64,000 nt of DNA from an uncultured Gemmatimonadales bacterium (GTDB lineage: Bacteria; Gemmatimonadota; Gemmatimonadetes; Longimicrobiales; RSA9): assembly GCA_963798845.1 (NCBI GenBank), contig CAWCUS010000005.1:160001-224000 (forward strand), given 5' to 3'. The notes under the pieces were generated by a model. The model ran no database searches. It saw only the letters and a program-made list of their open reading frames with translations, and had not been told where the DNA came from. The position numbers and the translations under genes are program-made. Position 1 is the stretch's first letter, and every line of letters starts with the position of its first letter. Positions 16,897-22,778 of this stretch are shown one piece after another.

Positions 16897-17253
16897 CTAG
16901 TCGAGCTGAGCCTTGGCCTGCGTCACCAGCTCTCCGAAGGCTTCCGGCTCGCGCACCGCGAGGTCCGCCAGGACTTTCCGGTTCACCTCGATCCCCGCCC
17001 GCTTCAGGCCGTTCATGAACCGGCTGTAGCTGAGGTCGTGCTGGCGCGCCGCGGCGTTTATCCGCGAGATCCACAGGCGGCGGAACTCGCGCTTCTTGTT
17101 CTTCCGGTCACGGTACGAGTACTGCCAGCCGCGCTCCACCGCGTTCTTTGCGATGCGCCATAGCTTCGACCGCCCGCCGAAATAACCGCGGGCCGCCCGG
17201 AAATACTTCTTCTTCTTGCGGTGTCTCGACACCGCGTTCGTTGATCTCGGCAT
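16897..17253 (-). CDS. rplT: 50S ribosomal protein L20
   Basis: ARGYFGGRS, YRDRKNKKREFRRLWISRINAA, NRKVLADLA. Confidence 0.98.
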   Translation of the reverse strand: MPRSTNAVSRHRKKKKYFRAARGYFGGRSKLWRIAKNAVERGWQYSYRDRKNKKREFRRLWISRINAAARQHDLSYSRFMNGLKRAGIEVNRKVLADLAVREPEAFGELVTQAKAQLD

Positions 17254-17469: not shown

Positions 17470-17985
<516 letters not shown>

Positions 17986-18009
17986 CGCTTTGCTCTCCTG
18001 TGACGGACG

Positions 18010-18150
18010 AAAAAAAGGACCCGCTCTCACGGGTCCACGGCTGCACCCTGCCCGGGTGGGCAAGGCGGCCTGTGAACCCGGCGGTACCGCGGAGCGGACC
18101 GAAAGGTGGAGGGGCGGCCAAGCTGCACCCTCGCTTCCTCAGTTTTCCGG
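18010..18150 (-). promoter_or_regulatory. Structured infC-rpmI-rplT leader with terminator/antiterminator (L20-leader-like attenuator)
   Basis: Terminator GGACCCG-TGAGAG-CGGGTCC-T7 (18010-18036). Competing pairing of CGGGTTCAC (18072-18080) with GTGGACCCG (18030-18038). Confidence 0.65.
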
Positions 18151-18238: not shown

Positions 18239-20176
18239 CTACAACGCCTTGGACCCGATCTCGTCGCGCAGCTGTCCCAGGAAGTCTTCGCGACCGAGCA
18301 CGTCCTGCTTCTTCCCCGCGCCGTGCTTGCGCACGGCGACGGTCCCGGCCTCCACCTCTCGCTGCCCGACCACCGCAAGGTACGGCACCTTCTGCGTCTC
18401 GCCGTCGCGGATCTTGTAGCTCAGCGTCTCGGAGCGGTCGTCCAGAGTCGCCCGGACGCCGGCGTCCCGCAGCCGGTCGGCGAACGCGCGGGCATCGTCG
18501 GCCTGGTCATCCGTGATCGGGAGGACGCGCACCTGCTCGGGCGCCAGCCAGAGCGGGAAAGCGCCCGCGAAGTGCTCGATCAGGATGGCGATGAAGCGCT
18601 CGAGGGAGCCGAAGATCGCCCGGTGTATCACCACCGGCCGGTGCGGGTGGTTGTCCTCCCCCGTGTACTCCAGCTCGAAGCGTTCGGGCGCGGCGTAGTC
18701 GAGCTGGATCGTGCCCAGCTGCCAGCTCCGGCCTATTGCGTCCACCACGTCGAAGTCGATCTTGGGGCCGTAGAACGCGCCATCGCCCTCCTTGAGGTCG
18801 TACTCCAGGCCCAGCCCCTCCAGGGCATTGCGCAGCCCCGCCTCCGCCCGGTCCCACATCTCGTCGGTGCCGATGCGCTGCTCCGGGCGCGTGGCGAATT
18901 TCTTCGTATAGCTCAACCCCAGCGTCCCGTAGAAGTAGTCGATGAGCTCCACAAGCCGACGGACCTCATCGGCGATCTGCTCTTCCGTGATGAAGATGTG
19001 GGCATCGTCCTGCTGGAACTGGCGCACGCGCGTGAGCCCCGAGAGCGCGCCCGTGATCTCGTTCCGGTGCAGCACGTCCTGCGTGGCGAAGCGGAGCGGC
19101 AGCTCGCGGTAGGAGTGCGCGCGCGACTTGTAGAGAAGGTAATGGGACGGGCAGTTCATCGGCTTCATGCCGAAGTCGTGCTCGCCCGACTCCCTGTCGA
19201 GCACCAGGAACATGTTGTCCTGGTACTTGCCCCAGTGCCCCGAGAGCTCCCACAGCGCCTTGTTGTACAGCAGCGGCGTCTTGACCTGCTGGTAGCCGTT
19301 CTCCGCCAGGACGTCCCGCATCCACTCCACCAGGGCGTGGTAGATGGTCGTGCCGCGATCCGTCCAGAACGGAGCGCCGGGTGCCCATGGATGGAACATG
19401 AAGAGGTCCAGCTCGCGTCCCAGCTTCCGATGGTCCCGCCGCTTCGCCTCCTCCAACCGGACCAGGTACTCCTGGAGGTCCGCCTCCGTGAACCAGGCGG
19501 TGCCGTAGATGCGCTGGAGCATCTGCCGCTTCTCGTCCCCGCGCCAGTACGCCCCGGCCGTGGACAGCAGCTTGAAATGCGCAACCTCTCCCGTCGCGGG
19601 CACGTGCGGACCGCGGCACAGGTCGAGGAACGGTCCGTTCCGGTAAATCGTGATGACCTCGTCGTCGCCGAGCTCCTCGAGCCGCTCCAGCTTGAGCGGG
19701 TCGTCCGCGAACAGCGCCCTGGCCTCTGCCTTCCCGACCACGCGCCGCTCGAACGGAGAGTCCTCGCCGGCGACCTCTCGCATCGCCGTCTCGATCTGCG
19801 CCAGTTCCTCCGGGGTGAACGGCTCGTCCACCTCGAAGTCGTAGTAGAAGCCGTTCTCAATGGCGGGGCCGAACCCGATGCCGGCGCCCGGGCGAACTTT
19901 CCGGACCGCCGTGGCCAGCACGTGCGCGGCCGAGTGGCGCAGCACCTCGAGCGCCTCCGGGCTGCGCCGCGTGATGATCTCCAGCGCTGCGTCCCGCTCC
20001 AGCGGGCGCCCGAGGTCCACGACCTCGCCGTCCACCTTCGCCGCCAGCGCGGCGCGGGCCAGCCCTGGACCGATCCGTTCGGCAACGTCCCGGGCCGTCG
20101 CCCCACGCGGGACCTCCAGCGCCTTGCCGTCCGGCAGTCGGACGCGGATCACACCCTCTTCCGTTCCCTTCATCAC
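18239..20176 (-). CDS. thrS: Threonyl-tRNA synthetase
   Basis: TGS domain, LRHSAAHVLA, DLCRGPHV, RDHRKLG, KPMNCP, GAFYGPKID, HRAIFGSLERF. Confidence 0.98.
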   Translation of the reverse strand: MMKGTEEGVIRVRLPDGKALEVPRGATARDVAERIGPGLARAALAAKVDGEVVDLGRPLERDAALEIITRRSPEALEVLRHSAAHVLATAVRKVRPGAGIGFGPAIENGFYYDFEVDEPFTPEELAQIETAMREVAGEDSPFERRVVGKAEARALFADDPLKLERLEELGDDEVITIYRNGPFLDLCRGPHVPATGEVAHFKLLSTAGAYWRGDEKRQMLQRIYGTAWFTEADLQEYLVRLEEAKRRDHRKLGRELDLFMFHPWAPGAPFWTDRGTTIYHALVEWMRDVLAENGYQQVKTPLLYNKALWELSGHWGKYQDNMFLVLDRESGEHDFGMKPMNCPSHYLLYKSRAHSYRELPLRFATQDVLHRNEITGALSGLTRVRQFQQDDAHIFITEEQIADEVRRLVELIDYFYGTLGLSYTKKFATRPEQRIGTDEMWDRAEAGLRNALEGLGLEYDLKEGDGAFYGPKIDFDVVDAIGRSWQLGTIQLDYAAPERFELEYTGEDNHPHRPVVIHRAIFGSLERFIAILIEHFAGAFPLWLAPEQVRVLPITDDQADDARAFADRLRDAGVRATLDDRSETLSYKIRDGETQKVPYLAVVGQREVEAGTVAVRKHGAGKKQDVLGREDFLGQLRDEIGSKAL

Positions 20177-20300
20177 TCGCTCCGCTCTCTTTCAGGCACC
20201 CGCCCACGCCAATCCAGCCGACCTGCCAACGACGCCGCCCGTCCACGCCGCTCCCGGCGGCCGGCCGCGACCGGCTTCCACCGCCATCCGACAGCGCCGG

Positions 20301-20338
20301 AAATGGAAACGGCCCCTCCGCGCGCCGGAGAGGCCGTC
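20301..20338 (-). terminator. Attenuator terminator in thrS leader
   Basis: GACGGCCTCTCCG-GCGCG-CGGAGGGGCCGTT then TCCATTT, about 20 nt after the leader-peptide stop. Confidence 0.7.
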
Positions 20339-20357
20339 CGTCGGACGCGGGCGCCGG

Positions 20358-20444
20358 TTACGCCCGCAACGGGACAGACCTCCCCCGCGCTCCCGTGGCG
20401 CGCGAGGTGGTGGTCTCGGTGGAGACAGGCGTCGTTTCCCGCAT
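20358..20444 (-). CDS. Thr-rich leader peptide of thrS (28 aa, MRETTPVSTETTTSRATGARGRSVPLRA)
   Basis: Manual translation: 7 Thr codons in the first 17, including ACC ACC ACC. Lies between a promoter and a terminator upstream of thrS. Confidence 0.8.
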   Translation of the reverse strand: MRETTPVSTETTTSRATGARGRSVPLRA

Positions 20445-20450
20445 GCGGAT

Positions 20451-20480
20451 ACCATAGCCCCGCTGCCGCGGTGGCGTCAA
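20451..20480 (-). promoter_or_regulatory. sigma-70-type promoter of thrS leader (leaderless start)
   Basis: TTGACG-N18-TATGGT, 6 nt before the leader ATG. Confidence 0.72.
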
Positions 20481-20625
20481 TGCGCGCCGCCGTCCGGCAT
20501 GTCCATTGCCTCGCGTCGACACGCGAATGCCACGCCGACGGCTTTTCGCCGCGCTCCCGTGGCTCTAGCTTTGGGAGTTCTCTTGCACAACCGCACTACC
20601 CCGGACAGAGGCTGACCCGTTGACG

Positions 20626-22689
20626 ATGACGTTGTTCGAACGCCTGCAGGATCTCGCCTACAACCTGCGGTGGGACTGGCACCGTCCCACACGTCGGCTC
20701 TTCTGTGAGCTCGACCCCGAGCTGTGGGAGCGCACGAGCCACAATCCCGTGGCGCTCCTGCGCCGTCTCGATCCGGCCGCGCCGCCGCCCGTGGACCGCC
20801 TGGAAGAGCGCGTCGACGACCTGTGGCGGGACCTCCACGACTATCTGGGCGCGCGCGACACATGGTATGGTCCCCCCGAAGAGCCAATGGACCGCCCCCT
20901 CGTCGCATATTTCTCGGCCGAGTACGGCCTGACGGAGTGCCTCCGGATCTACTCCGGCGGGCTCGGCATCCTCGCGGGCGACCACCTGAAGGCCGCCAGC
21001 GACCTGGGCCTCCCCCTCGTTGCCGTCGGGCTCCTCTATCGGGAGGGCTATTTCACCCAGCACGTGGATGCCGGTGGCCGCCAGCACGAGACCTTCCCGG
21101 CCGCGGACTTCGACGACCTCCCCCTGCACCCTGTGCACCGCAGGGACGGCTCGCGAATGCGAATCACCGTGCCGTTCCCGGGCCGGCCGCTCACGGCGGC
21201 GGTGTGGCGCGCGGACGTCGGTCGTGTCGCGCTCTACCTGCTCGACACCGACCTCCCCGAGAACGCTCCGGCCGACCGGGGGATCACCTCCCGGCTCTAT
21301 GGCGGAGACCAGGAGCTGCGGATCGCCCAGGAGATCATGCTGGGGATCGGCGGATACCGCGCCCTCTCGGCCATGCGGGTGAAGCCCCGCTCGTTCCACA
21401 TGAACGAGGGTCACTCCGCCTTCCTCGCCATCGAGCTCGTGCGCGACCTCATGATGGCCGAAGGTCTGGGCTTTGCCGCCGCTGTCGAAACGGCGCGAGA
21501 GCGCAACATCTTCACCACGCACACACCCGTTCCGGCAGGTCACGACCGCTTCGCACCGGCTCTCATGGAGCAGCACTTCGGTGCGATCGCTGCGGCGATG
21601 GGGATTTCCGTGACGGATCTCCTCGGCCTCGGCCGCGTGGATCCCGGTGACGAGGCGGAGCCGTTCACCATGACGGTGCTGGCGCTGCGCCTGGCCGCGC
21701 AGGCCAACGGCGTGAGCGCCGTCCACGGGCAGGTGTCGCGCGAGATGTGGCGGCCGCTCTGGCCCGACCGCGGCGTCGACCGCGTCCCGATCGGACACAT
21801 CACGAACGGCGTCCACCTCCCCAGCTGGGTCCACCCCGACATAGCCGCGACCTGGGGCAATGTCGCGCCGGCCCAGCTCGGCGTGGACGAGCGCGCCCCC
21901 AGCCTCGATCCGGCCACGCTCTGGGCCGCCCACCAGCAGAGGCGGCACCGGCTCGTCCACTACGTCAGGGAGCGCACGGGCGTGGAGCTCAGCCCGGAGG
22001 CGCTCACCATCGGCTTCGCGCGGCGCTTCGCCACCTACAAGCGCGCCACCCTCCTCTTCCAGGACCCGGACCGGCTCGCCCGTCTCCTGTCCGATCCCGA
22101 GCGTCCGGTCCAGCTCATCTTCGGGGGCAAGGCCCATCCGAAGGACCAGGGCGGGAAGGCGCTCATCCGACGGATCCTGGAAGCATCCCAGGAGGAACGC
22201 TTCCGCAACCGGATCGTCTTCCTCCCCGGCTACGGGATCGACCTGGCGCGCGTCCTGGTGCAGGGCGCCGACGTCTGGCTGAACAACCCACGCCGTCCGC
22301 TGGAGGCCAGCGGGACCAGCGGGATGAAGGCCGCGGCCAACGGGGTGCTGAACGTCAGCATCCTGGACGGGTGGTGGGACGAGGCATGGAGCGCCAGCGA
22401 GGGGCAGGACACCAGGCCGGGCTGGGCCATCGCCAGCGATGACGCCGCAGGCTCACCCGAGGCGGTGGACGAGCTCGACTACCAGGCTCTCTTCGCGCTG
22501 CTCGAGGAGGAGGTCGTACCCGCCTTCTACCACCGCGACGAGAGCGGCGCTCCGGCGGAATGGACGGCGCGAATGGTGGCGAGCGTCGCGACGATCGCGC
22601 CCGTCTTCAACACGAACCGGATGGTCCGCCAGTACGCAGAGCGCTACCGCCAGGCCGCCGAGCTCGCTGCCGTCGGCCGCGATCGCTGA
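20626..22689 (+). CDS. glgP: Alpha-glucan (glycogen/starch) phosphorylase
   Basis: LAYNLRWDW, YSGGLGILAGDHLK, HMNEGHSAF, GFARRFATYKRA, PLEASGTSGMKA (PLP lysine). Confidence 0.95.
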   Translation: MTLFERLQDLAYNLRWDWHRPTRRLFCELDPELWERTSHNPVALLRRLDPAAPPPVDRLEERVDDLWRDLHDYLGARDTWYGPPEEPMDRPLVAYFSAEYGLTECLRIYSGGLGILAGDHLKAASDLGLPLVAVGLLYREGYFTQHVDAGGRQHETFPAADFDDLPLHPVHRRDGSRMRITVPFPGRPLTAAVWRADVGRVALYLLDTDLPENAPADRGITSRLYGGDQELRIAQEIMLGIGGYRALSAMRVKPRSFHMNEGHSAFLAIELVRDLMMAEGLGFAAAVETARERNIFTTHTPVPAGHDRFAPALMEQHFGAIAAAMGISVTDLLGLGRVDPGDEAEPFTMTVLALRLAAQANGVSAVHGQVSREMWRPLWPDRGVDRVPIGHITNGVHLPSWVHPDIAATWGNVAPAQLGVDERAPSLDPATLWAAHQQRRHRLVHYVRERTGVELSPEALTIGFARRFATYKRATLLFQDPDRLARLLSDPERPVQLIFGGKAHPKDQGGKALIRRILEASQEERFRNRIVFLPGYGIDLARVLVQGADVWLNNPRRPLEASGTSGMKAAANGVLNVSILDGWWDEAWSASEGQDTRPGWAIASDDAAGSPEAVDELDYQALFALLEEEVVPAFYHRDESGAPAEWTARMVASVATIAPVFNTNRMVRQYAERYRQAAELAAVGRDR

Positions 22690-22737: not shown

Positions 22738-22778
22738 GATCGGGCCCCTCCCGCGGCGTCGCGGGAGGGGCCCGATTC
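22738..22778. terminator. Perfect hairpin between convergent glgP and groEL
   Basis: ATCGGGCCCCTCCCGCG-GCGT-CGCGGGAGGGGCCCGAT, 17-bp stem. Confidence 0.7.

Follow-up and report, generated by a model that had tools for sequence, protein, structure and literature searches.

Analysis of a 64,000-nucleotide (nt) stretch of DNA from an uncultured Gemmatimonadales bacterium (GenBank assembly GCA_963798845.1, contig CAWCUS010000005.1, positions 160,001 to 224,000; this whole stretch is referred to as the window) revealed a short upstream open reading frame (uORF) rich in threonine codons, followed by a terminator-like hairpin, in front of thrS, the gene encoding threonine--tRNA ligase (ThrRS). This leader very probably attenuates thrS transcription through a ribosome-mediated (leader-peptide) mechanism that responds to how much charged tRNA-Thr is available. 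Judged from its sequence and modelled folds, the Thr-rich uORF and the switchable terminator most likely raise ThrRS production when charged Thr-tRNA is short. All positions are given in the numbering of the window, and the leader and thrS lie on its minus strand. The source genome (G000) comprises 4.26 Mb with a GC content of 70.5% and is 96% complete.

A Thr-rich leader ORF and alternative hairpins precede thrS

The elements of the leader and the gene that it presumably regulates are as follows (MFE, minimum free energy).

18239 to 20176, minus strand: thrS, the presumed regulated gene, start codon GTG at 20176 (TIGR00418, 677.8 bits, cut-off 383.65)
20475 to 20480, minus strand: -35 box TTGACG (promoter scan), kept in relatives as TTGAC(G/C/T)
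20451 to 20456, minus strand: -10 box TATGGT (promoter scan), ending 6 nt before the uORF ATG
20358 to 20444, minus strand: leader ORF MRETTPVSTETTTSRATGARGRSVPLRA of 28 codons and a TAA stop; 7 of the codons specify Thr (sequence and translation)
20406 to 20420, minus strand: Thr cluster, codons 9 to 13 (ACC GAG ACC ACC ACC), the predicted stall site (ribosome-masked folding)
20378 to 20411, minus strand: 1:2 hairpin, region 1 (20411 to 20397, including the ACC codons) with region 2 (20393 to 20378) (MFE folds)
20346 to 20368, minus strand: small hairpin that places the uORF stop codon at the loop, 20368 to 20360 with 20354 to 20346 (MFE fold)
20322 to 20390, minus strand: 2:3 antiterminator, G-rich region 2 (20390 to 20372) with the terminator 5' arm and loop (20344 to 20322) (masked fold)
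20309 to 20337, minus strand: 3:4 terminator hairpin of 12 bp and about -24 kcal/mol, 20337 to 20326 with 20320 to 20309 (MFE folds)
20298 to 20308, minus strand: interrupted U-tract UUUCCAUUUCC, directly 3' of the terminator hairpin (sequence)

The promoter TTGACG-N18-TATGGT (20480 to 20451) was the sole sigma-70-like site recovered by the promoter scan between 19900 and 20900, where 50 shuffled sequences averaged 0.0 sites. No Shine-Dalgarno (SD) sequence was found in the window between the -10 box and the uORF ATG, and the transcript is predicted to begin at or next to this ATG, i.e., to be leaderless. The Thr codons occupy positions 4, 5, 9, 11, 12, 13, and 17 of the uORF and include ACC-ACC-ACC. 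The first-pass annotation, made from the letters alone, had described this promoter and an ATG without SD 6 nt past the -10 box, opening an ORF with 7 Thr among 17 codons. The promoter scan, the sequence and the translation agreed with it, and its description of the sequence elements is accurate to the base.

The MFE fold of the leader contained three main helices, the 1:2 hairpin, the small stop-codon hairpin and the terminator hairpin, with a z-score of -3.08. Read by eye, the alignment revealed that the 1:2 hairpin is retained with changed bases in the same-genus relative L002, and the sequences of many related leaders revealed a stop codon in or beside the loop of a small hairpin too. The antiterminator helix encloses the small stop-codon hairpin, and its 2:3 duplex reached -20.7 kcal/mol versus -15.2 kcal/mol in shuffles (z -2.6). 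The three mutually exclusive pairings that had been read from the letters were thereby recovered, 1:2 and 3:4 in the MFE fold and 2:3 in the masked fold described below. The terminator stem CGGCCUCUC...GAGGGGCCG is kept in 25 leaders. The U-tract is weak in the window and in L002, and most relatives carry clean runs of 5 to 7 U. The hairpin was also considered as the terminator of an upstream gene; this was rejected because the neighboring phosphorylase gene is divergent (plus strand, from 20620).

Ribosome position is predicted to switch the terminator

The folding of the leader was computed codon by codon as pair probabilities, with a masked ribosome footprint that began 15 nt 5' of the A site and reached 11 nt past it. 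The probability of the terminator in the window was 0.93 without a ribosome, fell to 0.0 to 0.3 with the A site on codons 9 to 14 (T-E-T-T-T-S), and returned to 0.9 past codon 14 and at the stop codon. With nt 19 to 47 masked, the best fold was the 2:3 antiterminator (-59.3 kcal/mol versus -56.7 kcal/mol for the forced terminator). Folding with and without the Thr cluster masked had been proposed as a check, and the prediction flipped from terminator to antiterminator. A putatively translatable short ORF, enrichment of cognate codons (7 of 28 are Thr) and an antiterminator predicted to depend on ribosome position, three of the features expected of an attenuator, were found in silico in the window.

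The following course of events is proposed. Transcription would start at, or 1 to 2 bases from, the A of the uORF ATG, and the ribosome would immediately translate this leaderless transcript. With ample Thr-tRNA, it would pass the Thr codons and move onto region 2 and the stop codon, so that region 2 is covered or re-pairs with region 1; terminator 3:4 would then form, and most transcripts would end near 20298 to 20308. When Thr-tRNA is scarce, the ribosome would stall on codons 9 to 13 and cover region 1, the G-rich region 2 would pair with the terminator 5' arm (2:3), and polymerase would read into thrS, and perhaps into infC-rplT, raising ThrRS. Anatomy, conservation, codon specificity and alternative folds were computed, whereas we infer where transcription starts, that it terminates in vivo and how the leader responds to Thr.

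Thr-rich leaders recur upstream of thrS

The DNA upstream of thrS was collected from 90 genomes of the same order, 89 of which provided at least 200 nt. To be called, a leader had to lie no more than 400 nt from thrS and to combine an ATG-initiated ORF of 10 to 45 amino acids (aa), in which at least one stretch of 8 codons contained 4 or more Thr, with a hairpin that had a T-rich tail and lay within 110 nt of the ORF stop. By this rule, a Thr-rich ORF and a terminator precede thrS in 26 of the 89 genomes. The positives belong to three families (f1, 19 of 40; f3, 6 of 31; f2, 1 of 18). Those of f1 include L007 (genome G017, unpublished), and the negatives include L006 (genome G020, unpublished); the leader L120 is identical to L038 and was counted once. 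The lack of Thr-rich uORFs in related genomes, which had been named as evidence that would speak against the attenuator, was therefore not what we observed. Runs of up to 7 to 8 consecutive Thr codons and up to 9 Thr per leader occur in relatives, as in MTTSTTTTTTTACGRGGVHPGKH (L011), METMTTTTTTTRERAGRIALRA (L021), MDNRSTTTTTTTTAAAPAVGGFCVR (L132), and MLGSTTTTTTTRLLPGGVG (L164). In L002, from the same genus, the promoter and the hairpins are retained, as are the length of 28 codons and the C-terminal LRA before the stop codon.

The specificity for Thr was determined in a control set of 98 upstream regions (the loci of the order plus 11 named Gemmatimonadota loci, minus L120), in which both strands and 19 amino acids were compared. 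At least 5 Thr in 8 codons were found at 19 loci on the sense strand versus 0 on the antisense strand, and at least 6 in 8 at 12 versus 0. The sense-strand runners-up at the latter threshold were Gly (2 loci) and Leu (1 locus), and no other amino acid exceeded 2. The Thr codons of the leaders were ACG (92), ACC (57), ACT (9), and ACA (4). This choice matches genomic usage, and a preference for rare codons is therefore not indicated. Among the ATG-initiated short ORFs of G000 (12 to 45 aa, six frames), 30 of 21,688 contained at least 6 Thr in 10 codons; all of the other Thr-rich short ORFs inspected in this genome lie within coding sequence in a different frame. A role of the uORF product as a functional small peptide was rejected, as only the Thr run and the structure-encoded C terminus are conserved.

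A comparable leader was found outside the phylum. Locus L049, from a Thermoanaerobaculia metagenome-assembled genome (MAG), encodes, about 70 to 125 nt upstream of thrS, MKRNTTTTTTTTAERPPC with 8 consecutive Thr codons, together with a clean terminator. This occurrence in another phylum suggests independent recurrence of the design.

Relatives without a Thr leader often have a conserved hydrophobic ORF of 27 to 42 aa directly before thrS. It bears the motif ...LWPWA...(L/I)FF(V/I/L)Y(T/A/P)PR followed by the stop codon (L013, L035, L139, L141 to L144, L146, and L148, about 60 to 200 nt upstream of thrS) and may be the gene of a small membrane protein.

The predicted antiterminator pairing recurs in related leaders

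With the A site on Thr codons of the cluster, the terminator probability fell below 0.5 in 9 of 13 leaders, and L021 was borderline. The moment of decision was modeled by truncating the RNA ahead of the terminator 3' arm before folding. In 11 of the 13 leaders, the terminator 5' arm was paired upstream as long as the ribosome was at or before the Thr cluster and lost this partner after passage. Region 2 was always G-rich and located in the 3' part of the ORF, upstream of the stop codon; it began about 6 to 25 nt past the final Thr codon of the cluster. For 14 of 26 leaders, its duplex with the terminator arm was stronger than those of 95% of the dinucleotide shuffles, and for 24 of 26 it lay below the shuffle mean energy (median z -1.8).

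The terminator stem is so conserved that its covariation can hardly be counted, and a swap test of the duplexes was used instead. After double centering, cognate duplexes were 1.5 kcal/mol better than non-cognate ones, and 0 of 10,000 permutations were as good. Of the covariation of stems in relatives that had been suggested as a check, this test bears on the antiterminator duplex. In the leader cores, region 2 and the terminator 3' arm were also observed to resemble an SD sequence (GGAGAGG/GGGAGG) and the terminator 5' arm an anti-SD sequence (CCUCUCC).

A chance ORF beside a constitutive hairpin, with no regulation at all, would be conceivable in a genome of 70% GC, where RNA folds strongly everywhere, and the energy of the 268-nt leader was indeed reached by 6 of 200 shuffles. 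We regard such a coincidence as extremely improbable, given that the leader recurs among relatives, is specific to the sense strand, keeps a fixed promoter spacing, has a covarying antiterminator and has the sister elements described below.

Initiation signals of the leader ORFs

The survey of initiation signals covered the 26 positives together with 5 homologues poor in Thr, 31 leaders in all. In 11 of them (L001, L002, L008, L020, L021, L038, L111, L112, L119, L123, and L159), TTGNNN-N17/18-TANNNT is followed after 5 to 6 nt by the ATG, the geometry of a leaderless transcript; L157 and L161 show the same geometry by eye with a non-TA -10 hexamer. Other leaders have GGAG or GGGAGG 6 to 9 nt before the ATG and a -10 box 24 to 45 nt upstream (e.g., L010, L011, L018, L019, and L133). 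The arrangement behind the leaderless start proposed by the first-pass annotation thus recurs in one group of leaders, whereas others carry an SD instead. A credible initiation signal in either form would be hard to explain unless these ORFs are translated.

The spacing between promoter and start codon was also analyzed genome-wide in G000 with the motif TTGNNN-N16-18-TANNNT, a distance d and ATG or GTG; the TTGAC-anchored count yielded too few sites. The number of sites peaked at a d of 6; among these 25 sites, 10 mark the start of ORFs with 150 aa or more. The remaining spacings gave 4 to 20 sites (24 at a d of 7) and 0 to 4 long ORFs. For the class Gemmatimonadetes, Table 1 of PMC10783764 gives a functional SD on 22% of mRNAs. 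This figure and the peak at a d of 6 make leaderless initiation at the thrS uORF plausible, and leaderless mRNAs may be common in G000.

The same RNA core precedes other amino acid genes

A covariance model (R1) was built on the cores, from region 2 to the terminator, of 25 thrS leaders. In G000, the thrS leader (45.9 bits) was the only significant match; a second match (28.8 bits) was rejected as the terminator of a cold-shock-protein gene. Searching 41 genomes of the family revealed 28 matches in 24 genomes, 19 directly upstream of thrS and 9 elsewhere, and searching 151 genomes sampled across the phylum revealed 16 matches in 15 genomes, 3 at thrS and 13 elsewhere. Placement at thrS was decided by thrS coordinates, or for genome G277 by the downstream ORF. 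The matches away from thrS have short ORFs of their own that end in the same core, with codon runs that fit the downstream gene.

Citramalate synthase (cimA): Ile-Ile or Ile-rich leader, e.g., MHARISIRRSITIRLSRRGGVLALG; 5 of 5 tested proteins above the TIGR00977 cut-off
Citramalate synthase, five more loci (L176, L179, L180, L182, and L185): recognized by the N-terminal LYDTTLRDGTQREG alone, by eye
Homoserine kinase, thrB (L187): Thr/Ile leader MMRFCPITTTMTIITRLSRRGGVLAFVR; 183 bits
Aspartate kinase, ask (L210): TTTT leader ...GMGTTTTRLSTGGGVLVCAQ; family search
Prephenate dehydratase, pheA (L181): F/Y-rich leader MTRAAMFYAFAFTAYLTEGAGHRRLR; 181 bits, ORF cut by the locus end
asnB (L208): Asn-rich leader MRTCSNANGRNSNRTPPGG...; 760 bits
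hisG (L207): leader with a run of His codons; from genome G020, unpublished
Acetyltransferase-proC fusion (L211): Pro-rich leader; family search

The core was also found before genes for a RimK-like ligase (L205, genome G013; Cys/Met-rich leader), gltB (L212), and a DgcN-like acetyltransferase (L188, genome G085), where the codon logic is less clear. At L198 (genome G006), the core follows a Thr/Met-rich leader, and the downstream ORF matched no family.

In comparative work, leader-peptide attenuation is classically recognized by just such a common core with gene-matched codon runs. By its sequence, the thrS element is one member of an attenuator family across the class Gemmatimonadetes with a common region 2/terminator core. 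We lean slightly toward a broader claim, that a single attenuator chassis is re-used across the class by exchange of the codon cassette alone. It would comprise a conserved region 2 rich in G (GGAGAGGCGGCG-like), a small hairpin that holds the stop codon and the terminator CGGCCUCUC...GAGAGGCCG-U(n). Six or more amino acids (Thr, Ile, Phe, Asn, His, and perhaps Pro) would be sensed in this way at biosynthetic and synthetase genes, and leaderless and SD-led forms would interconvert.

The common core also bears on the reading in which the hairpins form a protein- or tRNA-binding switch, by ThrRS autoregulation as in Escherichia coli or in the manner of a T-box, and the ORF is incidental. Both are known controls of thrS elsewhere, and the stem sequence is unusually conserved. 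However, Rfam scans revealed no family match, Thr_leader (RF00506) and T-box included, in the window region (E up to 10) or in 13 relatives (E up to 1), where only sub-threshold noise was obtained. With 132 nt between it and the thrS start codon, the element stays clear of the ribosome-binding site. An operator of the E. coli type was likewise not recognized: the structured part ends at about 20298, 122 nt before the GTG at 20176, and does not abut the ribosome-binding site (anticodon-like loops were not searched). Such a switch would leave in-frame Thr runs with an ATG and a leaderless promoter or SD unexplained, and genes that have nothing to do with ThrRS are preceded by the same core. Both a T-box and a ThrRS operator were rejected on model match and position. 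Because the codon run joined to this one core (Thr, Ile, Phe, Asn, or His) changes with the gene behind it, we regard a protein- or tRNA-binding switch as very unlikely.

The screen of G000 for further leader peptides with terminators, made with loose settings, gave 193 matches, mostly spurious. The Thr-, Asn-, Leu-, and Val-rich candidates inspected lie within coding regions or are not followed by a plausible target gene. Family searches of G000 found thrC, no citramalate synthase and no classical thrB; in this 96% complete genome, the assembly may lack the latter two, or non-orthologous enzymes may take their place.

Observations that weigh against the attenuator

The proposal of the first-pass annotation that ThrRS supply is set by ribosome stalling on a leaderless Thr uORF gained support from the recurrence in 26 of 89 genomes, the specificity for strand and amino acid, the masked folds and the sister elements. 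Several observations weigh against it. The strict terminator scan (19900 to 20900) called no terminator at the window hairpin, because the U-tract is interrupted; a strong 12-bp hairpin separates the uORF from thrS, yet its U-tract is broken and the strict scan is negative. The distance from the terminator hairpin to thrS is 132 nt, compared with 9 to 87 nt in relatives; this length is not conserved. By the rule applied, the element is absent from 63 of the 89 genomes of the order and is therefore dispensable. Even L002, from the same genus, has only 5 scattered Thr (at most 3 in 8 codons) and no modeled switch, and the leaders L020, L159, and L152 are likewise Thr poor.

The fold predictions add to these points. 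They are equilibrium models with an assumed footprint, and masking of the ribosome had no effect in 3 of the 13 leaders (L002, L008, and L015). Stalling at the early Thr codons 4 and 5 is predicted to favor termination. The antiterminator is predicted even without a ribosome in many leaders, and the region 1 anti-antiterminator, clear in the window, is therefore not general. The consensus that RNAalifold derived from the terminators comprised 7 pairs, of which 2 showed double changes.

Two of these observations would also suit a translated uORF that controls the terminator without reading Thr-tRNA specifically, either as a reporter of translation stress in general or by way of Rho or translation coupling: the homologous leaders L002, L020, and L159 are Thr poor, and the weak U-tract of the window leaves room for factor-dependent termination. 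Thr is nevertheless the sole enriched amino acid, and on the sense strand only; the Ile, Phe, Asn, His, or Thr runs of the sister elements fit their genes, and most relatives have canonical U-tracts. We therefore consider a general stress or Rho-coupled response unlikely and prefer the Thr-specific attenuator.

Genes and further structures around the leader

The genes flanking thrS and the leader are the following.

17470 to 18063, minus strand: infC, downstream of thrS on the same strand
16897 to 17253, minus strand: rplT, downstream of thrS on the same strand
20620 to 22689, plus strand: alpha-glucan phosphorylase gene (TIGR02094)

The closest named ThrRS proteins, with 64 to 75% identity, are from MAGs labeled Longimicrobiales, Longimicrobiaceae, and Gemmatimonadales, which places the window in Gemmatimonadota. 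infC and rplT are possibly co-transcribed with thrS. The divergent thrS and phosphorylase genes are separated by 443 nt of intergenic DNA. In its thrS-proximal part (20177 to 20297, minus strand; the 120 to 130 nt between terminator and thrS), a further long GC-rich helix was predicted. A minus-strand ORF of 513 aa that overlaps the phosphorylase gene had no match in the family search, and we take it to be a shadow ORF. Just past the phosphorylase gene, at about 22742 to 22772, lies a perfect GC-rich palindromic hairpin, GGCCCCTCCCGCG...CGCGGGAGGGGCC, present on both strands; it is probably the terminator of this gene.

Relation to known leader peptides and to the control of thrS

The mechanism proposed here is the same as that of the classic leader-peptide attenuators trpL, thrL, and pheM. 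In function, the window leader most resembles pheM-pheST of E. coli, where a leader peptide controls a synthetase operon. Both combine a synthetase gene, a leader peptide rich in cognate codons and a terminator/antiterminator; unlike the window leader, pheM senses another amino acid and is SD led, and the two have no sequence relation. The E. coli thrL leader (the Rfam family Thr_leader) is likewise a Thr-codon-rich leader peptide acting by transcription attenuation, but it controls biosynthesis genes rather than a synthetase, is also Ile rich and is SD led, and the corresponding cmscan gave no match here. In Actinobacteria, attenuators of trpS and leuS were reportedly described by Seliverstov in 2005.

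thrS itself is controlled in E. coli by a ThrRS-binding operator at the ribosome-binding site and in Firmicutes by a T-box that binds uncharged tRNA. To our knowledge, E. coli autoregulation and Firmicute T-boxes are the modes usually discussed for this gene, and we know of none elsewhere; we are also aware of almost no described RNA regulation in Gemmatimonadota. The window leader shares with the operator and the T-box the gene and the outcome, more ThrRS when charging is short. It differs in that those systems rely on binding of ThrRS or uncharged tRNA, and neither a match nor a corresponding position was found here. ThrRS autoregulation of E. coli thrS is mentioned in PMC2965389.

The nearest precedent comes from Streptomyces lividans TK24. 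In PMC8079986, an RNA-seq re-annotation, a leaderless thrL before thrS is proposed as a threonine-dependent leader peptide. It has 18 codons with 2 Thr, and its termination is called unclear, with one hairpin and no U-run; the same text lists leuL, trpL, and ilvL of S. lividans as leaderless leader peptides. Like this thrL, the window uORF is a short leaderless ORF upstream of thrS. Compared with thrL as described there, it has 7 Thr (relatives up to 9) and the full 1:2, 2:3, and 3:4 set, it belongs to another phylum, and its Gemmatimonadota relatives provide canonical terminators and comparative support. With the leaderless leader peptides of Actinobacteria in general, as far as that source describes them, it shares regulatory codons before amino acid or synthetase genes in high-GC bacteria; it differs from them in phylum, the core is not shared, and leaderless and SD-led versions coexist among the Gemmatimonadota relatives. 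Full-text literature searches returned no other thrS leader peptide and no attenuation in Gemmatimonadota; Lopatovskaya et al. 2010, on attenuation of synthetase operons (cited in PMC4833913), may bear on novelty. The first-pass annotation could not tell whether such an element had been reported for this lineage: the searches yielded the S. lividans thrL as a precedent, and none for Gemmatimonadota.

The mechanism is thus classical, and what is new is a member in Gemmatimonadota and a family without an Rfam model. The leader adds well-supported comparative evidence for a leader-peptide attenuator as a fourth mode of thrS control, in Gemmatimonadota. Its relatives represent a natural experiment in which the same switch has a leaderless or an SD-led start and the same core carries different codon runs for each gene. 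The chassis, if true, would be a natural plug-in family of amino acid sensors that is absent from Rfam. The family offers a new RNA model to annotators and a compact set of amino acid sensors to experimenters.

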